Shown here: piece by piece, positions 1 through 9,812 of the stretch
How the letters are laid out: the number at the start of each line of letters is the position of its first letter
Position numbering within the stretch: the stretch's first letter is position 1
Source: a virus
Taxonomy: Duplodnaviria; Caudoviricetes
IMG/VR virus record: IMGVR_UViG_3300027808_000037
Coordinates: 1 to 54,109 of that record
Strand: one strand, 5' to 3'
Length of the DNA stretch: 54,109 nt
Program-made: the position numbers and the translations under genes
Notes under the pieces: generated by a model
Databases searched by the model: none
What the model was told of the DNA's origin: nothing
What the model saw: the letters and a program-made list of their open reading frames with translations, nothing else

Positions 1-44
1 GCCGCCTTCGGGCACGCCTGGTTCGATCCCAGGATACTCCACCA
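1..44 (+). tRNA. 3' part of a class II tRNA (probably Tyr), truncated by the window edge
   Basis: Variable-arm hairpin GCC-TTCG-GGC, T-arm GGTTCGATCCC, ends ACCA; anticodon lies outside the window. Confidence 0.75.
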
Positions 45-51
45 AGTTTAT

Positions 52-127
52 GCGACTTTAGCTCATCGGTTAGAGCAGGGTACTCATAATGCCTTGGCGG
101 TTGGTTCAACTCCAACAAGTCGCACCA
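52..127 (+). tRNA. tRNA CAT (Met or Ile2)
   Basis: Cloverleaf, anticodon loop CT-CAT-AA, encoded CCA. Confidence 0.9.
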
Positions 128-136
128 AAATTTAAT

Positions 137-210
137 ATCTCTCTGATGTAATGGCAGCATGTCGGTCTCCAAAACCGTTCGTGGGGGTTCGAGTCCCTCG
201 GGGGATGCCA
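137..210 (+). tRNA. tRNA-Trp(CCA)
   Basis: Loop CT-CCA-AA, T-arm GGTTCGAGTCC, CCA end; U11-A24 pair and U27.U43 mismatch. Confidence 0.92.
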
Positions 211-218
211 GTCAATAA

Positions 219-310
219 GGAAGCGTGGCAGAGCCCGGTTTATTGCAACAGTCTTGAAAACTGTCGGACTTTAAAAGGTCCCGTGAGTTCGAATCTCACC
301 GCTTCCGCCA
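219..310 (+). tRNA. tRNA-Ser(TGA)
   Basis: Long variable arm, loop CT-TGA-AA, GCCA end. Confidence 0.93.
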
Positions 311-317
311 AGTTTAT

Positions 318-394
318 GCACCGGTACCAGAGCGACTAATGGCGCGGATTGCAAATCCGTTGATTCGTGGGTTTGAGTCCCACCCGGTGTTCCA
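318..394 (+). tRNA. tRNA-Cys(GCA)
   Basis: Loop TT-GCA-AA, TCCA end. Confidence 0.9.
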
Positions 395-396
395 GT

Positions 397-531
397 TTTG
401 TTTATGTGTGTACGGTTACCCTTATGTGATACGTGAGCCAACCAAGCCGCTTATGTATGTACTCGAAGCCCGTAGCAAGCGTAGTCGATACGTTCAGCGC
501 ATGCCTTGGACAGTGTGTGACGATAAACAAA
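397..531 (+). ncRNA. Candidate structured ncRNA A in the tRNA array
   Basis: Closing helix TTTGTTTAT/ATAAACAAA, internal CCAAG/CTTGG pairing; no credible ORF. Confidence 0.5.
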
Positions 532-539
532 TTCAATAT

Positions 540-629
540 AGTGAGTTGACAGAGTTCGGCTAAATGTACCTCCCTGCTAAGGAGTGTGTCGGAAACGGCA
601 CGTGGGTTCGAATCCCACACTCACTGCCA
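540..629 (+). tRNA. tRNA-Ser(GCT)
   Basis: Long variable arm, loop CT-GCT-AA, GCCA end. Confidence 0.9.
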
Positions 630-653
630 ATTTTTATTTTAGACTTATTAGGT

Positions 654-726
654 GTGACCTTAGTGTAGCGGCAGCACCCCAGATTGTGATTCTGTTAGTA
701 CGGGTTCGACCCCCGTAGGTCACCCC
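654..726 (+). tRNA. tRNA-His(GTG)
   Basis: Loop TT-GTG-AT, T-arm GGTTCGACCCC; no encoded CCA; flanked by a 10-bp inverted repeat. Confidence 0.88.
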
Positions 727-738
727 TAATAAGTTTTT

Positions 739-814
739 GTTCCTTTAGCTGATGTGGTCATAGCAGCGGTCTGAAAAGCCGATGAAGCAGGTTCGATCCC
801 TGCAGGGAGCACCA
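739..814 (+). tRNA. tRNA-Phe(GAA)
   Basis: Loop CT-GAA-AA, ACCA end. Confidence 0.92.
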
Positions 815-821
815 AGTATAT

Positions 822-895
822 TCCTCTGTAGTTAAATGGTATAACAGTCGACCGATAATCGACTATCACAAGTTCGATTCTTGTTGGAGGAACCA
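822..895 (+). tRNA. tRNA-Ile(GAT)
   Basis: Loop CC-GAT-AA (C instead of the usual U33), ACCA end. Confidence 0.88.
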
Positions 896-898
896 AGT

Positions 899-1117
899 TT
901 TGTTAAAGTGTCAGCAAGAGAAAGTCACGCTATAAAGGTTTCTTCGAAGGACTGATATAGTAGAAGGTAATGGGTTCAACTCCCAACCACTCGCAAGGGT
1001 GGTGTCTGTAACGGAGACTACGCTGGACCGGTATCCCAAGTGACGTACCGAGTCCCGCTCGAGCTTGTTAATTCGGGTGAATGGTGCTTATAATTATGGT
1101 AGCACTACTTTAACAAA
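899..1117 (+). ncRNA. Candidate ~220-nt multi-helix ncRNA B
   Basis: 11-bp closing helix TTTGTTAAAGT/ACTTTAACAAA, AGCAAG/CTTGTT and GTCAC/GTGAC helices, a GCAA tetraloop hairpin and a T-loop-like GGGTTCAACTCCC. Confidence 0.65.
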
Positions 1118-1125
1118 TTCAATCA

Positions 1126-1200
1126 GCGTCTGTAGTATAATGGAGAATACACTGGTCTACGAAGCCGGGGATTGTGGTTCGATTCCATACAGACGCACCA
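1126..1200 (+). tRNA. tRNA-Arg(ACG)
   Basis: Loop CT-ACG-AA, ACCA end. Confidence 0.92.
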
Positions 1201-1208
1201 ATTTTTAT

Positions 1209-1284
1209 CACTGTGTTAAGCGGGGCTGTATACACCCTTGCCAATAGTCGGGAATGTCAACATCGGCGTTGACCACAGTGGCCA
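1209..1284 (+). ncRNA. tRNA-like RNA with acceptor stem and CCA but non-canonical arms
   Basis: CACTGTG/CACAGTG stem followed by G-CCA, 76 nt; GTCAAC/GTTGAC hairpin in the T-arm position without a TTC loop. Confidence 0.6.
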
Positions 1285-1291
1285 ATTTTAT

Positions 1292-1367
1292 CTCGCATTC
1301 GGTTAGTGGCTATACCACTCCGTTTGGGGCGGAGACATCGTAGGTTCGAGTCCTACATGCGAGACCA
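1292..1367 (+). tRNA. tRNA-Pro(TGG)
   Basis: Loop TT-TGG-GG, ACCA end. Confidence 0.9.
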
Positions 1368-1376
1368 ATTTTTTAT

Positions 1377-1450
1377 GCCTTGGTAGTTTAATGGTAGAAC
1401 TGCGGTGTTACATACCGCTGACGGGAGTTCGATTCTCCAACAAGGTACCA
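1377..1450 (+). tRNA. tRNA-Val(TAC)
   Basis: Loop GT-TAC-AT, ACCA end. Confidence 0.87.
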
Positions 1451-1457
1451 CTTTAAT

Positions 1458-1535
1458 CTGTGTGTAATGTCAATCTGGTAGACGGCCTTGTTTGGAACGA
1501 GGAGGCTGTAGGTTCAAATCCTACCATGCAGACCA
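1458..1535 (+). tRNA. tRNA-Pro(TGG), second divergent copy
   Basis: Loop TT-TGG-AA, ACCA end. Confidence 0.88.
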
Positions 1536-1543
1536 ATTTTTGT

Positions 1544-1617
1544 TCGGGTGTTATGTAATGGTAGCATATCAGACTTTGACTCTGAGAGTGTAGGTTCGAT
1601 CCCTACCACCCGTACCA
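1544..1617 (+). tRNA. tRNA-Gln(TTG)
   Basis: Loop CT-TTG-AC, ACCA end. Confidence 0.9.
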
Positions 1618-1618
1618 G

Positions 1619-2431
1619 TTAAGATTTAAACTTAATTAATTTTTCGTGCAATAATTTTGCAGCAAGTATATTTGAGTCAATTCCGGGGTGCCGACAATCT
1701 CTGGCAAGATCTCGAATTGGTAATAACATCATGGGAAAATTTGGATATTTTAGATTTTGCTCATCCCACATTTTATTAAAATGTGTAGCATGTATCACAG
1801 GGATATCAGTATACAGTGAGTTAGTTATCATTCTATTAAACATTGCAGAAATTGCTCCTGACTTAGATTTACCAAATATCTCGTCGAGTACTTCTATAGA
1901 AACGTCATTTGAAAATCCAAAGTTATTCCAAGGTCCGTTGAATTGTATATTATAATTTTTGTCTACAGAAAATGGTCTATTAGAATCGGCCCAGAGATGA
2001 ATTACTGCCCGGGGCCTAATATTATTATTTTTTAATATCATCATATTGTAAAGACTAATTTGTTGGCAACTGGCCACCACACCCAGATTAACTACATTGC
2101 AACCTGTAAGTTCTTTAAGTCTGGAAGAGATCGTATCAGCATCATCAACACCAACACCAAAGGCGTTACTGCACCCAAACATTACAATAGAATTAGACCA
2201 ATCTATGTTTTCAAAAGGCTCGCAACGATAATACTGTCCATTGAGCGTGTATTGAATAGATTTGGTTCTGTAAATCCAAGTGTCGTGCAGCCTAGCAAGA
2301 TTAATTTTGAAATTTGATTCAGAATCTGCTGCCACAAAGGGCGAATCCATTGGGTGAAAATTATCAACATACACTTGTGACGAGCTTGTGTCAAAATTGA
2401 TAAGTTGTCTTTGTAATGTGTCAGAGTGCAT
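1619..2431 (-). CDS. SGNH/GDSL-hydrolase-like protein inserted antisense in the tRNA array
   Basis: FGCSNAFG block, NLG block, C-terminal DxxHPG. Confidence 0.6.
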   Translation of the reverse strand: MHSDTLQRQLINFDTSSSQVYVDNFHPMDSPFVAADSESNFKINLARLHDTWIYRTKSIQYTLNGQYYRCEPFENIDWSNSIVMFGCSNAFGVGVDDADTISSRLKELTGCNVVNLGVVASCQQISLYNMMILKNNNIRPRAVIHLWADSNRPFSVDKNYNIQFNGPWNNFGFSNDVSIEVLDEIFGKSKSGAISAMFNRMITNSLYTDIPVIHATHFNKMWDEQNLKYPNFPMMLLPIRDLARDCRHPGIDSNILAAKLLHEKLIKFKS

Positions 2432-2445
2432 ACCCTATTTATTAT

Positions 2446-2537
2446 GCCAGCGAGACTTGGAAGTCAGAGAGGTCTTATATACCTTTTAGCGCCAGATTAG
2501 CGTTCTTGAGAGAGTTCGATCCTCTCCGCTGGTACCA
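2446..2537 (+). tRNA. Atypical tRNA with TAT anticodon (Ile by anticodon) and a long variable arm
   Basis: 7-bp acceptor stem, 4-nt D-loop, extended anticodon stem, loop CT-TAT-AT, V-arm AGCGC/GCGTT, ACCA end. Confidence 0.75.
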
Positions 2538-2541
2538 TTAT

Positions 2542-2619
2542 GCCCCGATAGCCCAATTGGTATGAGGCGTCTCTCTCAAAAGGAGAATCGTGTCGGTTCG
2601 AGTCCGACTCGGGGTACCA
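2542..2619 (+). tRNA. tRNA-Leu(CAA) with a short variable loop
   Basis: Loop CT-CAA-AA, 5-nt variable region, ACCA end. Confidence 0.8.
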
Positions 2620-2658
2620 TTGAATTTATAGTACTAACGTATTAGCGTACTAAAGTAT

Positions 2659-2666
2659 TATAAATA
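2659..2666 (+). promoter_or_regulatory. T4-type late promoter TATAAATA
   Basis: Exact T4 late consensus 4 nt before the ATG at 2671. Confidence 0.6.
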
Positions 2667-2670
2667 TACG

Positions 2671-3312
2671 ATGTATAAAATCATCGAAAATAACAGTCCG
2701 TACTACATAAAGTTCAAAATGCCAAATGCAATTGAGATTGCTAATGTATGTAGAGCCAGGTGTGATCGTGTTTTTAAAAGATTCTTTGTGTCTGAACCGT
2801 TGCAACGCATTGAAGTGGAAAGTATAATTGAATTATTTCCAAGTTTTAATCAATTGCAGTTATTAGATTCCCGCGTAAATATCTTTGTTAGTGAGCCGGG
2901 ACTATACTCGCCACCACATAAAGATGGCGCAGATATGCAATTTGGTATCAATATACCAATTGAAATTGCCGACGACGAATGTATTACAAATTGGTATTCA
3001 GATGAAAGTTTAAGCAATTATGAATACTATGCTGGAGTGGATAATTTATTAGGTATGAAACGATATGTTCGCCAGATACAAAATTATCAGGTTGACGCAT
3101 GCTCGCCAATCGCTTCAACTACAATGAAACCAGATGAATGTATGCTGTTCAATGTAAATTGCTTTCATGATTGGGACAATCGACGGTCTACTAACCGTCG
3201 AATTATACTAACTCTCCGACCGACACCGGGCATTGGAAACTTGTCGTTTAACGATGTCGCTCAGATATTGTTTGGAAAATCAAACAAATTAGATTCGACG
3301 GCCGTCACGTGA
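2671..3312 (+). CDS. 2OG-Fe(II) oxygenase-like (DSBH) protein
   Basis: PHKD ... FHDW ... RRIILTLR (HxD...H...R pattern). Confidence 0.6.
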   Translation: MYKIIENNSPYYIKFKMPNAIEIANVCRARCDRVFKRFFVSEPLQRIEVESIIELFPSFNQLQLLDSRVNIFVSEPGLYSPPHKDGADMQFGINIPIEIADDECITNWYSDESLSNYEYYAGVDNLLGMKRYVRQIQNYQVDACSPIASTTMKPDECMLFNVNCFHDWDNRRSTNRRIILTLRPTPGIGNLSFNDVAQILFGKSNKLDSTAVT

Positions 3313-3630
3313 TCGTTGTTGCGCAATCATAACACGTTTTGGAACTACACTAGCGATTTCTTCGTAGTCGTCCATATCAATAGCATCTTGATCGGCACCT
3401 ACTTCGATAATCTTCTCTACAACAAAATGTAGAATATCATCACTTACAACATCTTCTCGAATCATTTCTAATACACGAATAAGTGTTGGAATGTTAAATG
3501 ATACGCATGGCTGTGTTGATTCGGTGGCATCGTCATCTGTTTCAACTTCAACTTCGTTGTTGGTAGTGTCAGACTGATAAAGTCCATTGCGACCTCTGAC
3601 CATTGACTGACGTGATTTGTAATATGACAT
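3289..3630 (-). CDS. Hypothetical protein
   Basis: AGGAGA RBS before the ATG at 3630; acidic ORF. Confidence 0.7.
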   Translation of the reverse strand: MSYYKSRQSMVRGRNGLYQSDTTNNEVEVETDDDATESTQPCVSFNIPTLIRVLEMIREDVVSDDILHFVVEKIIEVGADQDAIDMDDYEEIASVVPKRVMIAQQRSRDGRRI

Positions 3631-3730
3631 AATGTGTCTCCTTGTATTATTAGACACACTTACTTAAAATGAAACTTTAGATATCGGCTACGGCTTTTGC
3701 AGTAGCATCAACTTCATGTTGACAACATGG

Positions 3731-3759
3731 TTGACAACAGTCAAGAATGGCTGTATAAT
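3731..3759 (+). promoter_or_regulatory. Sigma70-type promoter for the second tRNA block
   Basis: TTGACA-N17-TATAAT. Confidence 0.85.
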
Positions 3760-3786
3760 TAGAACTTAAACAAAAGAGGTAATGAC

Positions 3787-3810
3787 ATGAAACGTACAGG
3801 TAAACTGTAG
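3787..3810 (+). CDS. Putative 7-aa leader peptide MKRTGKL ending in TAG
   Basis: GAGGT RBS; the TAG overlaps the base of hairpin 3810-3845. Confidence 0.5.
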   Translation: MKRTGKL

Positions 3811-3871
3811 TGTCCCTTAGATCCCCGTATGGTCTAAGGTGGCACGTAAAAGACAAAGTCAATACGAACAC

Positions 3872-3946
3872 CCATGCTAAACTTTAGTGGTGAAGTACCC
3901 GGCTCTTAACCGGAATAACCGAGTTCGATTCTCGGAGCATGGACCA
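3872..3946 (+). tRNA. tRNA-Lys(CTT)
   Basis: Loop CT-CTT-AA, ACCA end. Confidence 0.9.
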
Positions 3947-3948
3947 TA

Positions 3949-4023
3949 CGGGGTATAATTCAATGGTTAGAATAGCCGGCTTTTAACCGGTCTATCACGG
4001 TTCGAGTCCGTGTGCCCCGACCA
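3949..4023 (+). tRNA. tRNA-Lys(TTT)
   Basis: Loop CT-TTT-AA, ACCA end. Confidence 0.92.
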
Positions 4024-4105
4024 TATCTAAACACATTACCCACTGATAGCGGCGTACCCGTGAGTCTTTGGGAGTCTTGCAAGCTAGTGTGTTTAGATAT
4101 GGTCG
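4018..4105 (+). ncRNA. Candidate ncRNA C, an 18-bp perfect helix enclosing a ~50-nt domain
   Basis: CGACCATATCTAAACACA / TGTGTTTAGATATGGTCG. Confidence 0.55.
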
Positions 4106-4151
4106 ATGCTATCTGCAGATAGCATTCATAATCGGAAGTAATTACTCCGAT

Positions 4152-4229
4152 GAACTCGTAGTCTTCTAATGGTAGGAAAGGCCCGTTATGGGGCTTAATG
4201 CAGGTTCGAATCCTGCCTACAATGAGTTT
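4152..4229 (+). ncRNA. tRNA-like RNA with an 8-nt anticodon loop and bulged acceptor stem
   Basis: Canonical D arm and T arm (GCAGG-TTCGAAT-CCTGC); loop CGTTATGG; no CCA. Confidence 0.6.
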
Positions 4230-4360
4230 GCATATTGAAGTATATTCATCATTGGTAGTAGACTTCGATCAACTTGGTTAATAGTTGAGTCTCATTATGA
4301 AGCAGCCTAACCAGCGCGATGAAAAGACCCTTTACGTCGAGAGTATATTTCAATATGTAA
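4228..4360 (+). ncRNA. Candidate ncRNA D with a pseudoknot
   Basis: 20-bp closing helix with three G.U pairs; loop TGGTTA of the TCAACT/AGTTGA hairpin is complementary to TAACCA at 4308-4313. Confidence 0.65.
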
Positions 4361-4431
4361 TAGCTTGCAAGGTCGCTCCTTGCCGCAAACGGCAGCGTCA
4401 GTCGTGACATCCCGGGAGAGACCGGGGCCAT

Positions 4432-4506
4432 GGTAACGTAGCATTAAGGCAATGCGCCACCTTCATACGGTGTCAAAAGTGAGTTCGATTCTCACCGTTA
4501 CCACCA
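4432..4506 (+). tRNA. tRNA-Met(CAT)
   Basis: Loop TT-CAT-AC, ACCA end. Confidence 0.9.
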
Positions 4507-4514
4507 GTTTTTAT

Positions 4515-4590
4515 TCCATCTTAGTATTCTCGGTGAGTGCCCCTGGCTGTTAACCAGGTGAGGTTGGTTCGAATCCAACAGATGGAGCCA
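4515..4590 (+). tRNA. tRNA-Asn(GTT)
   Basis: Loop CT-GTT-AA, GCCA end. Confidence 0.92.
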
Positions 4591-4596
4591 GTATTT

Positions 4597-4671
4597 CGGT
4601 CCTTGGTGAAATGGATATCATCTCTGTCTTCGAAACAGAGGGTAGAGGTTCGATTCCTCTAGGACCGGCCA
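4597..4671 (+). tRNA. tRNA-Arg(TCG)
   Basis: Loop CT-TCG-AA, GCCA end. Confidence 0.9.
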
Positions 4672-4677
4672 AGTTAT

Positions 4678-4772
4678 GGGAAGTAATGCAGGGGTGTTGG
4701 TACCCCGACCAGCCTTGAAAACTGGGTCCTGGTGATGAGCCGGGTGGGGTTCGACTCCTCTGCTTCCCGCCA
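4678..4772 (+). tRNA. Atypical 8/4-fold tRNA-Ser(TGA) with a Sec-like D arm
   Basis: 8-bp acceptor GGGAAGTA/TGCTTCCC, 4-bp T stem, 6-bp D stem with 4-nt loop, long V arm, GCCA end. Confidence 0.8.
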
Positions 4773-4777
4773 AGTTT

Positions 4778-4858
4778 TGTGTGTTTCGTATAAATGTTAG
4801 GGCGCCATTACATGAGGCTAATGACCTCCGGATACAGGTTCGAATCCTGTAACACACA
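4778..4858 (+). ncRNA. Degenerate tRNA-like element
   Basis: TGTGTGTT/AACACACA acceptor stem and perfect T arm ACAGG-TTCGAAT-CCTGT; D and anticodon arms not canonical; no CCA. Confidence 0.5.
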
Positions 4859-4864
4859 TTCAAA

Positions 4865-5011
4865 TTTCGAGATAGACGTAGAAGTTGAGTCCCCGATGCG
4901 CTAGGGCCCTGTTCTTGTGCCTGACACACCAGTAGCAACATCGGGTAGTTTAAACTCCTTTATACGAGACAAGCCTGTGAGTCCTTGAGAAAGATAGCGG
5001 GTCTCTTGAAA
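4865..5011 (+). ncRNA. Candidate structured ncRNA E at the end of the array
   Basis: TTTCGAGA/TCTTGAAA closing helix, CCCGATG/CATCGGG helix, possible CTTGT/ACAAG pseudoknot. Confidence 0.5.
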
Positions 5012-5013
5012 AC

Positions 5014-5367
5014 CTATTGTACCTTGCCCCAGTTAGACTTTGCACGAACAGCAAAGGCAAGTTCATGCATCTTACTATATTGGGGCGTACCTTTTGGGTG
5101 CGGCCCTGTTTTTTTGAGTGCGTTATACTGTGCTAGCAATTCTTCTTTAGTTTTGCCTTCATACTTGCCGCGTTCATTGGGGTTAACCTGAGTAGCAGTG
5201 TCCCAACCTTCTTCAATATCCTTGGCAATGGCTTTTCGTCTGCGTGATAGATATTGGTCAGACTTGTCACTGTCGCCATCATTGTCAACATCACTATCTT
5301 CTTTGCCAACTGGATCAAGTGCTTCGTTAATGATGTCGATGTATTTTCTAAGTAAGTTACCGCTCAT
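5014..5367 (-). CDS. Hypothetical, possibly a virion internal protein, with a DxDNDGD Ca-binding-like loop
   Basis: AGGAG RBS; DPVGKEDSDVDNDGDSDKSD motif. Confidence 0.65.
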   Translation of the reverse strand: MSGNLLRKYIDIINEALDPVGKEDSDVDNDGDSDKSDQYLSRRRKAIAKDIEEGWDTATQVNPNERGKYEGKTKEELLAQYNALKKTGPHPKGTPQYSKMHELAFAVRAKSNWGKVQ

Positions 5368-5441
5368 AGTATATTCTCCTAACAATATTTAGAATAAAAT
5401 ATACAACAGCGCATTGTACTTTAGTACTAATCTTAAATTGG

Positions 5442-5470
5442 TTGACACCCATTCGAAATAGTGTTACAAT
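5442..5470 (+). promoter_or_regulatory. Sigma70-type promoter
   Basis: TTGACA-N17-TACAAT. Confidence 0.75.
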
Positions 5471-5491
5471 AGCATAAACAGGAGAACCAAT

Positions 5492-5959
5492 ATGCCATGG
5501 ATTGAAAACGTAGCAGCCGCAGACATCCCAACCCGCTTTCATCACGAAGCTGGCCCAAACAGTATGCTAATCAGTATTGTTGATCCAGCCAGCTGGAGGC
5601 CAGAAGCGGCCCATGAATTCAAAGAGCGCCATAACTTTGAGTTCCTAGACATTGAAAAGAACGACTTTGCGCTAGACGAAGCAATGCGTTGCAGCCAAGA
5701 ACAAGCAGACGAACTGGTCCGCCTGTTGCAACATGCATTGGCGAACAAAATGAATGTTGTCGTTCATTGCTTTGCAGGCATTTGCCGTTCAGGTGCAGTG
5801 TGTGAAGTTGGTGTAATGATGGGATTTGAAGACACAGGTCGATTCCGTAGCCCTAACTTGTTGGTTAAGCATCGCATGATGAAGGCCCTGGGCTGGACTT
5901 ATGATGAAAACGAAAAGCCCAATATTGATGACTGGCGCACCTTTAAAAGTGTTGACTAA
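5492..5959 (+). CDS. Cys-based (tyrosine/dual-specificity) phosphatase family protein
   Basis: HCFAGICRS = HCx5R P-loop; AGGAG RBS. Confidence 0.85.
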   Translation: MPWIENVAAADIPTRFHHEAGPNSMLISIVDPASWRPEAAHEFKERHNFEFLDIEKNDFALDEAMRCSQEQADELVRLLQHALANKMNVVVHCFAGICRSGAVCEVGVMMGFEDTGRFRSPNLLVKHRMMKALGWTYDENEKPNIDDWRTFKSVD

Positions 5960-5960
5960 G

Positions 5961-6016
5961 TGTTGTAAAAATACAACAATAAAACGGTTGCTCAACTTGG
6001 AATTTTGTGTTATACT
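5961..6016 (+). promoter_or_regulatory. Early promoter with palindromic box
   Basis: TGTTGTA-AAAA-TACAACA, then AAAACGG-TTGCTC-N17-TATACT. Confidence 0.7.
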
Positions 6017-6044
6017 ACATGTATTAAACAACGAAAGGCATTAT

Positions 6045-6218
6045 ATGGCTGGCAAAGCAAAATCAATTTATTTGACAATCACAGTAAAAGGACAGTTCAA
6101 AACTGTTTTTAGCAGAGTCTTTTTTGATGCTAAGGCATATAACGAATATGTTAAGTCAGACGAGTTTAAAGCCCAATGGCCCGTTGAAGAATTTGATGTT
6201 ATCAAGGAAGTATATTAA
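6045..6218 (+). CDS. Small hypothetical protein
   Basis: AAAGG RBS; ORF directly downstream of a promoter. Confidence 0.7.
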   Translation: MAGKAKSIYLTITVKGQFKTVFSRVFFDAKAYNEYVKSDEFKAQWPVEEFDVIKEVY

Positions 6219-6225
6219 GGAATAA

Positions 6226-6453
6226 ATGTATAAGGTAATAGGAAAAGAAGAACTATTTCGAGTTCTTACTCTTGCAGAAGCAATGAATGTTGCCAAGAGT
6301 ATGAATGAATTCGTTACTATCAAAGGACCCGACTTTGAAGTATGCGGAATGTTTGGAGTAGATAGCATTAAGGACGGATTATGCCCCGACGGTGTTAAAT
6401 ACGATTGGAACAAGGCCAGTAGAATTGGTCGTGTTAAAAAGGAGCGAGTATGA
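6226..6453 (+). CDS. Hypothetical protein
   Basis: AAGGA RBS; its TGA stop overlaps the next ATG (ATGA). Confidence 0.75.
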   Translation: MYKVIGKEELFRVLTLAEAMNVAKSMNEFVTIKGPDFEVCGMFGVDSIKDGLCPDGVKYDWNKASRIGRVKKERV

Positions 6454-7118
6454 AACGTGTAATTGAAGTCCGTGCCGCAGAAGGTGGCGAAGACAGTAAA
6501 CTATTTGCAAAAGATCTTGCACAAGCCTACATTAAATTTGCCCACAGCAAAGGCTGAGCTACCCGCCTAATAGGTGAGTATCTTGGTGAACTTCATATTG
6601 AAGTAAAGGGTACTGATTTATCAGGCTTGTATAATGAAAGCGGTGGACACAGAATACAACGTGTTCCGCCAACAGAGCGTAAAGGTAGAGTTCATACCAG
6701 CACCGTAACAGTTGCTATTACAGACCCAACTGAAGTTGCCATAAAGGTTGCAGACAGTGATTTACGTATCGAATGGTATAGTGGTACTGGAGCTGGCGGC
6801 CAGCACCGAAACAAGCACCAAAACAGTTGCCGTATTACTCACATACCCTCTGGCACAGTTGCAACAGCACAATGTCGCAGTCGTCAAAATAGCCTTGATC
6901 AAGCCATGGGTACTATTCACAAAACGGTTGACAAACAGGTTCAAAACCAGTATAATAACGGCATAGCAAGTGATAGAAAGCAACAAGTTGGATCGGGTAT
7001 GCGAGGAGACAAAATCCGTACATACCGTTTCCAAGATGATGTTGTTAAGGATCACGTAACAAATAAATCAAACAGCGTTAAACGAGTGCTAAGTGGCAAT
7101 TTTGACCTGCTGTGGTAA
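6450..7118 (+). CDS. prfA: RF1-like class I peptide chain release factor lacking domain 1, with an in-frame UGA at codon 36 (6555-6557)
   Basis: EVRAAEGGEDSKLFA, ESGGHRIQRVPPTE (PxT motif), GAGGQ and IRTY motifs all in one frame; AAGGAG RBS. Confidence 0.85.
6928..6956 (+). promoter_or_regulatory. Sigma70-type promoter internal to the release factor gene
   Basis: AAAACGG-TTGACA-N17-TATAAT, same form as the other early promoters. Confidence 0.8.
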
Positions 7119-7130
7119 TAAGGAATTGAA

Positions 7131-7679
7131 ATGAAAACATGGATCACAAGCGACTTGCACTTTGGGCACAAGAACATTATGAGCTTCTGCCCCGAGACGC
7201 GAGCACGTTTTAATAACGATGTTGCTTACATGAACAACGCAATGGCAGAGGAATGGAACGCCAAAGTGCAACCAGAAGACACAGTTTACATCTTGGGTGA
7301 TGTGGCGTTCATGTCGGGCAGTGTTGCTGGTAGAACAATTGCCCGTTTGAATGGCACCAAGATTTTGATCGAAGGCAATCACGATCGCAAGACATTACAG
7401 GATGCAACATTCCGTAGAGCTTTTGCAGAGGTACACAAGTATTTGGACATCACATATGACGGCCACAAGTGCGTTATGTTTCATTATCCAATTGCCGAGT
7501 GGGATCAAATGCATCGTGGAGCATTGCACTTTCATGGTCACTTGCACGGAGGTGTAAGCGGCTTGGAAAAGTACCGTGCATTGGACGTGGGTATGGACTC
7601 AACCGGTGAAATTGTAGTTTCTATGGAACGTGCAATTAATTTGATCAAGGACAACGAAATTAAAGGTCATCATGTTTAA
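7131..7679 (+). CDS. Calcineurin-like metallophosphoesterase
   Basis: SDLH, LGD, GNHD, HYP and HGHLH motifs. Confidence 0.9.
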   Translation: MKTWITSDLHFGHKNIMSFCPETRARFNNDVAYMNNAMAEEWNAKVQPEDTVYILGDVAFMSGSVAGRTIARLNGTKILIEGNHDRKTLQDATFRRAFAEVHKYLDITYDGHKCVMFHYPIAEWDQMHRGALHFHGHLHGGVSGLEKYRALDVGMDSTGEIVVSMERAINLIKDNEIKGHHV

Positions 7680-8577
7680 GGACAAGTTGAAAGAGTATGT
7701 AGAATCGTCTAAGCTGGTTGGCATGCGCGAAGCCGGTGAAGGCATCTATGTACTCAAATATAAGAAGCGTGTGTTTTACGACAACCTGTGGAACGAATAT
7801 ATTGCTGAATGTCGTGGAAGTATTGTGGATGCAGATTTCAACCTAGTTGCTTATCCATTCACAAAAATCTACAACTATGGCATTGAAAATGAAGCACCTG
7901 TATTGGCAGACGATACTGAAGTTACCGCGTTCCGTAAAATCAACGGCTTTATGGTTGCAATGACTTGGTACAACGGCGATATCCTGGTGTCTACTACAGG
8001 TTCAACTGACAGCCCATACGTTGCTATGGCAAAGGAAATGATGTTGACTCATCAAAGCTGGGCCGACTGGCAGTTGGCATTCAATCGCGCAGACATGGAC
8101 GGGATGACGTTTATGTTTGAATGTGTACATCCCAACGATCCACATATTGTGCCTGAAAAGCCAGGTATGTATATCTTGGGTTATCGTGAAAACACTTGGT
8201 GTAGCCGTGTAGGTCATGATCCTGCTGTACTACAAGATTTAGCAAATGCATTTAACTGCTATGAGACAGAAAGCTATACCACTAATATGGTTCGCTTGAA
8301 AGAAATGGCAAAGGAATGTAAGCATGAAGGTTTTGTATTCTATACTGAAGATGGTGTAAGTGCTAAAATCAAGAGTCCATACTACTTGACTTCAAAGTGG
8401 GTTGCTCGTAATCCACGTACAGACAAGTTGGTGAACATGCAAGCAGACATCAAGCATCAACTAGACGAAGAATACTACCCTCTAGTGGATGCTATTCGTG
8501 CTAACATTGTCGAGTACACTGCTATGGACGAGCAAGCTCGTTTAGCTTGGGTGCGCAACTACATGGAGACAGTATGA
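7672..8577 (+). CDS. T4 Rnl1-type RNA ligase
   Basis: ECRG, PFTKIYN, KINGFM (motif I), EGFV (motif IV), KIKS (motif V). Confidence 0.85.
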   Translation: MFKDKLKEYVESSKLVGMREAGEGIYVLKYKKRVFYDNLWNEYIAECRGSIVDADFNLVAYPFTKIYNYGIENEAPVLADDTEVTAFRKINGFMVAMTWYNGDILVSTTGSTDSPYVAMAKEMMLTHQSWADWQLAFNRADMDGMTFMFECVHPNDPHIVPEKPGMYILGYRENTWCSRVGHDPAVLQDLANAFNCYETESYTTNMVRLKEMAKECKHEGFVFYTEDGVSAKIKSPYYLTSKWVARNPRTDKLVNMQADIKHQLDEEYYPLVDAIRANIVEYTAMDEQARLAWVRNYMETV

Positions 8578-8735
8578 AAGAAGAAAAGTTTCAAAAGATA
8601 GTAGAAGAGATTAGTGAGTTTCTTGGAGACCATATGCAGAAGAATCCTCACTACTTGTTCGACGAGGACATTATCAAAATCTTTTCTCACTATAAAAAGA
8701 AGCACATTAAACGAGCATTAGAGGAAATACGATGA
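8574..8735 (+). CDS. Small hypothetical protein
   Basis: ATGA overlaps at both ends. Confidence 0.6.
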   Translation: MKEEKFQKIVEEISEFLGDHMQKNPHYLFDEDIIKIFSHYKKKHIKRALEEIR

Positions 8736-9040
8736 AACAACTTACTTGCCCACATTGTGCAGACACTTATCCAGATTTTGATGTTGCTCACGTCTGTAGT
8801 AAAGGTCAGTATGCCCCCAAACTCAACCCTAAAATGAATGATGAAAGTCACCTACCTGTAGCAGAACAAAGTCTGGTGTTCCGTTTGCGTAAACGAGCAG
8901 AGATCCGTAGGCAAATCAGTTCACGTAAAAGTGTAGAAGAAGGTAAACCAGACCGTATTGCTGACTTGTTAGAAGAAGCCGCTGCCGAAATTGATCGGCT
9001 TAATTTGTCCGTTAAAGATGTTTCAGTTGACAGCAAGTGA
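8732..9040 (+). CDS. Hypothetical protein with an N-terminal CxxC
   Basis: GAGG RBS, translationally coupled. Confidence 0.65.
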   Translation: MKQLTCPHCADTYPDFDVAHVCSKGQYAPKLNPKMNDESHLPVAEQSLVFRLRKRAEIRRQISSRKSVEEGKPDRIADLLEEAAAEIDRLNLSVKDVSVDSK

Positions 9041-9055
9041 TAACTATGTTATAAT
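9027..9055 (+). promoter_or_regulatory. Sigma70-type promoter
   Basis: TTGACA-N17-TATAAT upstream of tRNA-Ser. Confidence 0.8.
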
Positions 9056-9075
9056 AACTGCATAGCAAGAAATTA

Positions 9076-9167
9076 GGAACGGTGGCTGAGTGGCCGAAGG
9101 CAGCAGGTTGCTAACCTGTCGAGTGTTTTATTATGCTCCGTGAGTTCGAATCTCACCCGTTCCGCCA
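9076..9167 (+). tRNA. tRNA-Ser(GCT), second copy
   Basis: Loop TT-GCT-AA, long V arm, GCCA end. Confidence 0.93.
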
Positions 9168-9193
9168 AGTTAATTAACCAAAGAAAGAAAAGT

Positions 9194-9355
9194 ATGAAGC
9201 CAGGTAAGACATTTAAGTTGAGTAAGCAGACAAAGCGTTTGATGTGCAGCATTGTAGATGCCAAAGAACGTAATGCATTTAAAAGTGCAATGATCCAAGC
9301 AGAGTTGGCTGCTGGTGTAGTTATTAAACGCGAGCCACGTGAAGCTCGTAAGTAA
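9194..9355 (+). CDS. Small basic hypothetical protein between two tRNAs
   Basis: 53-aa ORF MKPGKTFKLSKQ... Confidence 0.6.
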   Translation: MKPGKTFKLSKQTKRLMCSIVDAKERNAFKSAMIQAELAAGVVIKREPREARK

Positions 9356-9367
9356 TCGCCAAATTCT

Positions 9368-9442
9368 CTGGCGTTAGTATAATGGATAATACAGCAAGCT
9401 TCTACCTTGCGAATGTGGGTTCGATTCCTGCACGCCGGACCA
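9368..9442 (+). tRNA. tRNA-Arg(TCT)
   Basis: Loop CT-TCT-AC, ACCA end. Confidence 0.92.
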
Positions 9443-9449
9443 TATAAAG

Positions 9450-9479
9450 AAAATAGGACCCAATGGGTCCTATTTTTTT
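9450..9479. terminator. Bidirectional intrinsic terminator
   Basis: AAAATAGGACCC-AAT-GGGTCCTATTTTTTT between convergent units. Confidence 0.85.
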
Positions 9480-9497
9480 GGCTGTACGAAGCTTAAA

Positions 9498-9812
9498 TTA
9501 TGCTTCGAGTACTTCAACTACATAATCATTTGTGATGTTATGTGTTGTGTTGTATGCATCACGCTCGGCTACAACAGAAGCTAAACTTGCATCTGCTACA
9601 AATTCATCAAGGGCGTCAACGCTAGCGAATACATATTCAACAACTTGTGTCAATGCACCAACTGCTGGTACAGTTCTAGTCACTGAAAGTAATTTGCCAG
9701 TGACTACATAAGCTGCATCGATTGCAGATTTTGTGCCGGCTGCGGCTGCCCAAAATGACACTTCAGTGTCTGGACGGGTAAAGGTGCGAGTTAATTTAAC
9801 TGGGTTTGTCAT
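9498..9812 (-). CDS. Hypothetical protein
   Basis: GGAG RBS; 104-aa ORF ending at a terminator. Confidence 0.75.
   Translation of the reverse strand: MTNPVKLTRTFTRPDTEVSFWAAAAGTKSAIDAAYVVTGKLLSVTRTVPAVGALTQVVEYVFASVDALDEFVADASLASVVAERDAYNTTHNITNDYVVEVLEA

Follow-up and report, generated by a model that had tools for sequence, protein, structure and literature searches.

The Hirsh UGA suppressor of Escherichia coli, known from work by Hirsh in 1970 and by Smith and Yarus in 1989, is reportedly a G24A change in trpT. In Blastocrithidia, according to a study of 2023 (Nature 613:751), the top pair of the anticodon stem is said to be open in the CCA-anticodon tRNA for tryptophan (Trp), in an organism that reads UGA as Trp genome-wide and has an altered eRF1. 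Both features, A24 and an open 27:43 pair, occur together in a tRNA-Trp(CCA) gene at positions 137..210 of a viral contig of 54,109 bases (IMGVR_UViG_3300027808_000037), which was analysed at its full length and is referred to as the window. The same contig carries a gene for an RF1-like release factor (RF) with an in-frame TGA, and a first-pass annotation had proposed that this tRNA supplies Trp at the UGA of the RF gene. Comparison with related phages, other viruses and cells leads us to regard the window tRNA as probably an ordinary UGG-decoding phage tRNA whose features are typical of its lineage.

The tRNA-Trp(CCA) gene is 74 nucleotides (nt) long, has CCA encoded and lies on the + strand, as do the other window features whose ranges are written with two dots below. 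It was called by ARAGORN and by Rfam (RF00005, match at 137-207, 48.7 bits, the gathering score being 29). The D stem is made up of A10-U25, U11-A24, G12-C23 and U13.G22; U11 (147) and A24 (159) form a Watson-Crick pair (147..159) in the sequence and in the ARAGORN structure. In the anticodon arm (162..178), both programs leave U27 (162) and U43 (178) unpaired, with four pairs beneath them (C28-G42, G29-C41, G30-C40 and U31-A39) and a 7-nt loop, CUCCAAA, that holds the anticodon CCA at 169-171. The 27:43 pair is the only one marked as non-standard in the Rfam alignment of this tRNA, and position 9 is a G. The structure reported in the first-pass annotation, U11-A24 together with U27.U43 and an anticodon stem of four base pairs (4 bp), was thus recovered by ARAGORN and Rfam alike. 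G73 and A1-U72 are identity elements for tryptophanyl-tRNA synthetase (TrpRS), and the window tRNA carries both, the states of 101 and 93, respectively, of 111 sampled cellular tRNA-Trp genes. UGG is used at a frequency of 20 per 1000 codons in the open reading frames (ORFs) of the window. In public RNA runs, contig depth over positions 1-317 adds up similar tRNAs from other organisms and shows loose ends at 163 and 199, so that it is no measure of this tRNA; no meaning is attached to the parts of 1-9500 that lack cover in these runs.

Like the Hirsh suppressor, the window tRNA pairs A24 with U11 and keeps the CCA anticodon. Unlike in the suppressor, A24 is here the usual state of the lineage and not a change from G24, U.G being present in only 1 of 23 genes of the clade described below. 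The tRNA shares with that of Blastocrithidia a CCA anticodon and an open top pair of the anticodon stem; however, the window phage ends 27 of its 77 ORFs with TGA and has a single conserved in-frame TGA.

Natural tRNA-Trp genes with shortened anticodon stems were surveyed in 42,109 bacterial genomes by Fakih et al. (2026, Nucleic Acids Res, PMC13092985). 4-bp stems occur in 8.9% of 38,615 bacterial tRNA-Trp(CCA) genes, with 3,171 open at the top. A9C and/or G24A are present in 2,414 of 3,438 4-bp tRNA-Trp genes, and the 4-bp form is the sole tRNA-Trp in 2,677 genomes with the standard code. As in this class, the window tRNA combines a CCA anticodon, a 7-nt loop, an open 27:43 pair and A24. It differs in being phage-encoded, the words 'phage' and 'viral' being absent from the main text of the article, and in having U:U as its open pair, whereas C:A, C:U and G:A are the most populated in the class. 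With A at position 24 it also falls outside the 'Blastocrithidia-like' subclass, which is defined in that article by the lack of A9C and G24A. On sequence grounds, the window tRNA fits the described natural class with a 4-bp stem and A24, in a phage setting that the article text does not cover.

The RF1-like gene (6450..7118) has 222 codons and encodes a protein with PPT and GGQ motifs in which domain 1 is absent, as judged from Pfam, PDB alignments and NCBIfam. Its start is the ATG at 6450, preceded by a Shine-Dalgarno-like AAGGAG, and the ORF at 6627-7118 covers the end of the PCRF domain and the RF-1 domain (Pfam). RF1 chains in PDB align with the protein only from RF1 residue 87-112 on. 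The NCBIfam model prfA scored 197.8 bits against a cut-off of 423.25, with model positions 115-341 of 361 matched, which is below a full-length equivalog; PrfH (TIGR03072) scored 39 bits, short of its cut-off of 166.65. Codon 36 is an in-frame TGA (6555..6557), placed by structure alignments and related loci in the column of a conserved RF1 tryptophan, which is Trp in the solved structures of Thermotoga and E. coli RF1.

To follow this codon in relatives, the best 80 of 264 related viral stretches were used (66-97% identity), and all clade counts rest on these. TGA stands at codon 36 in 81 of 81 sequences, the window and the 80 loci, with zero variation in the 72 unique sequences, although flanking synonymous sites do vary. 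Codon 1 is ATG in 80 of the 81, and codons 1-71 of the 72 unique sequences contain no stop besides the TGA of codon 36. Entropy at the three codon positions is 0.47/0.32/1.26 for codons 2-35 and 0.61/0.33/1.09 for codons 37-71, a coding pattern. As far as variation among relatives can tell, the RF gene is translated through the TGA in frame and the TGA is kept by selection, since coding-type variation is found on both sides of an invariant codon. RNA-library contigs from two runs of different studies span the TGA unchanged, one of them over 403 nt with no differences. Editing of the TGA to TGG was not seen in these two runs at the level of contigs, which hide rare variants and may include DNA carry-over. 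A literature search on release-factor terms found no description of such a TGA-interrupted RF gene.

Release-factor genes with an early stop are known from prfB, the gene for RF2, in which an autoregulatory +1 frameshift takes place at an early in-frame UGA. Similarly, the window RF gene is gated by an early UGA, which could couple its expression to the efficiency of UGA termination. Unlike prfB, it continues in the same frame, that is, by read-through and with no +1 shift. The protein, RF1-like and with a PPT motif, should presumably not recognise the UGA in its own gene. In recoded phages, code-change modules comprise a suppressor tRNA, an aminoacyl-tRNA synthetase and RF1 or RF2, with RF1 in the TGA-recoded Jade phages (Borges et al., 10.1101/2021.08.26.457843). 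The window phage resembles them in that its RF gene sits among tRNA genes. It differs in the lack of a UCA suppressor, of a TrpRS and of genome-wide in-frame TGA codons within the window, and in an RF that is without domain 1 and interrupted by TGA.

The mRNA around the TGA appears to be constrained as well. Third-position entropy is lowered in the six codons that follow (6558..6575), a possible read-through context: it is 0.47-0.68 in five of codons 37-42, compared to 1.36-1.81 in codons 24-34, which suggests a signal at the nucleotide level. At +4, the 81 sequences have A (50), G (29) or C (2) and never U; U at this position is the context reported to lower read-through (PMC5289835). The invariant TGA, the constrained codons and the lack of U at +4 together point to programmed read-through with an mRNA signal. 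With respect to RNA structure after the TGA, the RNAalifold consensus contained 4 pairs with 0 compensatory changes, and neither a covarying helix nor a hairpin of the selenocysteine insertion sequence (SECIS) kind was found. The window RNA at 6540-6635 does fold as a long hairpin (-31.3 kcal/mol, z = -3.0), for which the 23 relatives compared provide no covariation support.

Which tRNA could read this codon was asked of the window and of its relatives. As the first-pass annotation had stated, the window contains no UCA-anticodon tRNA, the 22 ARAGORN genes, one tRNA found by Rfam only and a relaxed ARAGORN run all being negative. None was present among the 904 ARAGORN calls in the 80 RF loci either. 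A UCA tRNA elsewhere in the genome, which would have spoken against the proposed role, was sought in three relatives standing in for the remaining genome and searched whole with Rfam: G001 (354 kb, 100% complete), G002 (364 kb, 100%, with direct terminal repeats) and G003 (321 kb, 92%). Their tRNA sets, 46-47 tRNAs each, contain no UCA anticodon, and ARAGORN applied to the tRNA arrays identified 1-2 tRNA-Trp(CCA) genes in each. A TrpRS gene was not found in the window. Since no UCA tRNA is evident in the window or its relatives, a CCA-anticodon tRNA-Trp, of host or phage, is left as the only apparent supplier of Trp for the RF UGA, and judged from these gene sets it would be the likeliest reader. 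Hence one part of the first-pass claim stands, in that some CCA tRNA-Trp must read the codon; the other part, that A24 and the open 27:43 pair mark the window tRNA as the UGA reader, is not supported by the comparisons below. Eight 'tca' calls among the 1,558 relaxed-ARAGORN calls in the 80 loci were rejected as false, having no Rfam tRNA match; none lay in the window or in G001-G003. Separately, each of these three relatives carries one CUA-anticodon tRNA of the amber suppressor type, far from the main tRNA island (L204 92-166 in G001, L202 109-183 in G002 and L206 116-190 in G003).

To place the two features, three sets of tRNA-Trp genes were compared using one ARAGORN-based parser. The RF-clade set consists of 23 unique tRNA-Trp(CCA) genes from 23 of the 80 loci. 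Position 11:24 is U-A in 19 of these, C-G in 2, U.G in 1 and G-C in 1, while 27:43 is mismatched in 9, forms G.U in 4 and a Watson-Crick pair in 10; A24 and the mismatch coincide in 6. The cellular set came from a pattern scan, with 120 loci of many phyla among the matches listed, and comprises 114 tRNA-Trp genes (111 unique). Among these listed matches, 11:24 is C-G in 59, U-A in 29, U.G in 9 and otherwise in 17, where the assignment assumes standard spacing and the 17 of 114 are odd pairs; at 27:43, 90 genes have a Watson-Crick pair, 20 have G.U and 4 are mismatched. Counted over the 111 unique cellular genes, 28 have A24, 4 the mismatch and 2 both. The viral set, obtained with the same pattern from 116 loci among the matches listed, contains 106 unique tRNA-Trp genes, of which, before filtering, 73 have U-A at 11:24, 20 are mismatched at 27:43 and another 20 have G.U there. 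A search for the RF protein in the records behind 99 of the viral loci revealed a TGA-interrupted homologue in 2 and a partial, stop-free match in 2 more; the 17 records of at least 90% completeness gave no match. Some of the mismatch-bearing viral genes were identical or nearly identical to RF-clade tRNAs. Consequently filtered for genes with at least 85% identity to RF-clade tRNAs and for the two RF-positive loci, the set was reduced to 90 genes from unrelated viral contigs, of which 59 have A24, 13 the mismatch and 11 both.

A24 is thus carried by 83% of the clade genes, 66% of those on other viral contigs (p=0.14 in a Fisher test; these tests treat related sequences as independent) and 25% of the cellular ones. 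The reservation of the first-pass annotation that A24 occurs naturally in some tRNA-Trp genes proved correct, with 28 of 111 cellular genes and 59 of 90 from unrelated viral contigs. By these counts, A24 is the phage norm whether or not the RF gene is present, and the open pair shows some enrichment in the clade, where it is far from universal. As a class, viral tRNA-Trp(CCA) genes have U11-A24 and an open 27:43 pair more commonly than cellular ones, and other tRNAs shift likewise, more weakly; base composition or host lineage may explain this shift between viruses and cells.

Neither feature is restricted to tRNA-Trp. In the window, 27:43 is mismatched in 6 of 22 tRNAs (Trp, Ser-GCU at 540, His, Phe, Lys-CUU and Met at 4432) and G.U in 5 of 22, and U11-A24 is present in 9 of 22. 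Neither feature is therefore exceptional within the tRNA set of the window, and the first-pass remark that several other tRNAs here share the open pair holds. Non-Trp tRNAs of the clade are mismatched at 27:43 in 93 of 700 cases, and by isoacceptor the mismatch reaches 16 of 17 for Lys-CUU, 8 of 21 for Lys-UUU and 14 of 54 for Met in the relatives. Among the matches listed, non-Trp tRNAs show it in 116 of 1016 viral compared to 12 of 195 cellular genes. As a practical lesson, a tRNA-Trp gene in which A24 and an open 27:43 pair are found is, when taken without controls, no evidence of UGA decoding.

The states of the tRNA also vary among phages that share the same RF TGA. The tRNA-Trp of L008 is identical to that of the window, and the next relatives, L009 and L011, have G27.U43. 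In the subfamily that resembles the window, U is almost constant at position 43 and position 27 takes all four bases, the pattern expected if position 27 drifts freely. The same TGA is present in the complete relative G002, whose only tRNA-Trp has U11.G24 and A27-U43. On a maximum-likelihood tree of 24 RF proteins with a neighbouring tRNA-Trp, the three 27:43 states require 9 changes, compared to a mean of 10.8 after shuffling, and 28 of 200 shuffles were as low; the open state itself switches at least 5 times. Strongly supported sister pairs on this tree differ in their 27:43 state (L035/L041, L040/L067, L060/L056 and L068/L037). An association across phages of the two features with UGA-containing RF genes, which the first-pass annotation had put forward as a check of its claim, was therefore not borne out: the mismatch is present in 9 of 23 genes, its states are scattered on the tree and G002 has neither feature.

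The use of TGA as a stop was examined in the same phages. Stops of the 77 ORFs in the window are TAA in 47, TGA in 27, including genes supported by Pfam, and TAG in 3. Grouped by the 27:43 state of the tRNA-Trp, TGA ends 29% of ORFs with the mismatch (63/216), 23% with G.U (11/47) and 27% with a Watson-Crick pair (38/140). Terminase genes of G001-G003 contain no internal stops. Nothing in these sequences points to strong or general reading of UGA. Recoding across the window was considered and rejected, as treating TGA, TAG or TAA as sense gave no suggestive lengthening of long ORFs. Same-frame ORF pairs joined by a TGA turned out to be separate adjacent genes, the RF gene being the only large ORF split by TGA.

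We therefore favor a reading in which the tRNA-Trp(CCA) of the window would be one member of the near-complete tRNA set of a freshwater jumbo-type phage, with UGG decoding as its main job. U11-A24 would represent the normal state of a phage tRNA-Trp and not a Hirsh-type mutation, and U27.U43 would place the tRNA in the natural 'top-unpinned' class with a 4-bp stem, position 27 appearing to drift freely in the clade. The RF UGA would most likely be read as Trp at a low level by a near-cognate tRNA-Trp(CCA) of host or phage, a step that we infer, with help from the local mRNA context. That such a tRNA reads the codon is plausible in kind, as the task must fall to some CCA tRNA-Trp. The window tRNA may add modestly to the read-through, and would be neither required nor specialised for it.

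Several observations weigh against so ordinary a role. The RF gene lies within the tRNA island, 6.2 kb from tRNA-Trp, and with no UCA tRNA in the complete relatives it is a tRNA-Trp(CCA) that must read the UGA. The 27:43 mismatch is more frequent in the clade (39%) than on other viral contigs (14%, Fisher p=0.015) and in cells (3.6%); in this comparison 6 of the 90 'unrelated' viral loci lie outside the RF search, and the control pattern, which fixes the CUCCAAA loop and the T-loop consensus and so leaves U32 loops outside, yielded the first 116-120 matches and not a random sample. Compared with RF-negative records of at least 90% completeness, the counts are 9 of 23 against 1 of 16 (p=0.028). 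In addition, the mismatched letters vary within the clade (UU, CU, UC, GA) while the pair stays open, and this retention could reflect selection for an open pair. Finally, according to PMC13092985, lower UGA use accompanies 4-bp forms in 13 of 19 bacterial orders, and over-expression of the E. coli C27A 4-bp variant raised UGA read-through about 2.5-fold; C27A alone was without effect in vitro. The gain with C27A and the lower UGA use make a quantitative contribution of the window tRNA plausible.

The strongest competing explanation, which we think unlikely though worth serious attention, takes these points further and holds that A24 and the open 27:43 pair tune the phage tRNA-Trp(CCA) to reading UGA, and that this tRNA is the dedicated source of Trp for RF codon 36, so that the RF would be made only once the tRNA island is expressed. 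Besides the invariant TGA in a conserved Trp column (81/81), the lack of a UCA tRNA in three relatives 92-100% complete and the enrichment of the mismatch over other viral tRNA-Trp (p=0.015), it draws on A24 in 19 and a non-Watson-Crick 27:43 pair in 13 of the 23 clade genes, and on the presence of tRNA-Trp in 9 of the 11 RF loci whose 10-kb flanks are complete. For 4-bp stems and G24A there is precedent from experiments (PMC13092985). However, the same TGA is accompanied by a Watson-Crick 27:43 pair in 10 of the 23 neighbouring tRNA-Trp genes, the complete G002 combines U11.G24 with A27-U43, and the 27:43 state is unclustered on the RF tree. Moreover, A24 is equally common on viral contigs lacking the RF gene, 5 more tRNAs of the window have the open pair, and TGA is a frequent stop (27/77) that is not depleted in phages with open stems. 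If such tuning were real, a near-cognate tRNA and not a suppressor anticodon would control a translation factor of the phage itself, and the 4-bp-stem mechanism would extend from recoded eukaryotes and symbionts to viruses.

A more elaborate proposal, for which the odds seem to us slightly poorer still, makes the tRNA island a licence for the RF gene. Phage tRNA-Trp variants (A24, a non-Watson-Crick 27:43 pair and, in some, U32) and the conserved 18-nt context would together raise UGA read-through, and synthesis of the RF1-like protein without domain 1 would then have to await expression of the phage tRNAs and would scale with it, giving a tRNA-gated timer that needs no suppressor anticodon. 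U32 instead of C32 (loop UUCCAAA) was observed in the tRNA-Trp(CCA) genes L018 11300-11376, L019 17537-17613, L021 17095-17171, L056 8537-8613 and L076 6847-6921; in G001, G003 and L076 this form is one of two tRNA-Trp copies.

It is improbable that the open 27:43 pair is unrelated to UGA and arose as a by-product of conflict between phage and host over tRNAs, by stem divergence that escapes tRNA-targeting nucleases or other defences, or else through relaxed constraint. Mismatches at 27:43 are indeed spread over many isoacceptors, with 6 of 22 tRNAs in the window and Lys and Met in the relatives, and are commoner in viral than in cellular non-Trp tRNAs. The RF gene is, furthermore, flanked by a phosphatase, a calcineurin-like phosphoesterase and an Rnl1-type ligase, a set that is presumably of the kind used in tRNA repair. 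Yet the window phage has not been linked to any host, defence nuclease or cleavage site, these data do not tell escape from plain relaxed constraint, and known nuclease-escape changes affect mainly anticodon loops, which counts against this explanation.

Equally doubtful is the notion that the RF UGA mainly terminates, braking expression or sensing how active the RF2 of the host is, or that it is decoded differently, so that the properties of tRNA-Trp would be irrelevant: TGA is a genuine stop in this phage, an early UGA in a release-factor gene recalls prfB and the RNA contigs of two runs span the codon without TGG editing at contig level, but codons 2-35 and the 186 downstream codons evolve as coding in one frame from an ATG kept in 80 of 81, and a full-length RF product is therefore under selection, while the column is Trp in RF1, no frameshift is needed and no covarying SECIS-kind hairpin follows the codon.

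Two by-products of this work, the bias of viral tRNA-Trp genes as a class towards A24 and open stems and the six constrained codons after the RF UGA, are perhaps worth more than the tRNA itself.

With respect to its overall content, the window has 42% G+C, and its first letters lie inside a tRNA gene. The public runs that contain window DNA are freshwater or lake metagenomes. Megablast of positions 1-5000 against named phages revealed no close cultured relative, and only tRNA-sized stretches of E. coli jumbo phages and of Xanthomonas phage XacN1 were matched. Apart from the genes described above, the window encodes functions of a kind typical for large phages, namely ClpP, NifU/IscA, NAMPT, NMNAT-Nudix, DNA ligase, radical-SAM enzymes and a cell-wall hydrolase.

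The tRNAs of the window number 22 ARAGORN genes and one Rfam-only gene. The main tRNA island (1..4858) comprises a tRNA 3' half cut at the contig start, 20 ARAGORN tRNAs and the Rfam-only tRNA-Ile(AAU). Two further tRNAs, Ser-GCU and Arg-UCU (9076..9442; ARAGORN and Rfam), lie beyond the RF gene, which is therefore inside the tRNA island. Its neighbours there are genes for a dual-specificity phosphatase-like protein (5492-5959), the calcineurin-like phosphoesterase (7131-7679) and an RNA ligase of the T4 Rnl1 type (7672-8577).

The Rfam-only tRNA (4779-4858) scored 45.5 bits with anticodon AAU (Ile); its D region contains an insertion of 13 nt, its 27:43 pair is a U27.C43 mismatch, and ARAGORN misses it at default settings. 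tRNAs for Ile(AAT) are present in G001 and G003 as well. A 92-nt tRNA-Ile(UAU) called by ARAGORN at 2446-2537 is without an Rfam match at the gathering score and may represent an odd structure or a false call.

Unusual RNAs were also encountered in the tRNA islands of relatives. Locus L037 carries a GOLLD RNA (1-451, 168 bits) that is cut by the contig end, and L023 a permuted, alpha-type transfer-messenger RNA (4800-5181). Odd anticodon-loop sizes were found by ARAGORN in tRNA-like genes of L041 (4203-4277) and five other loci, 4 of these odd-loop calls having four-letter anticodons (e.g. UUUC and CUCC) and 3 having two-letter ones.

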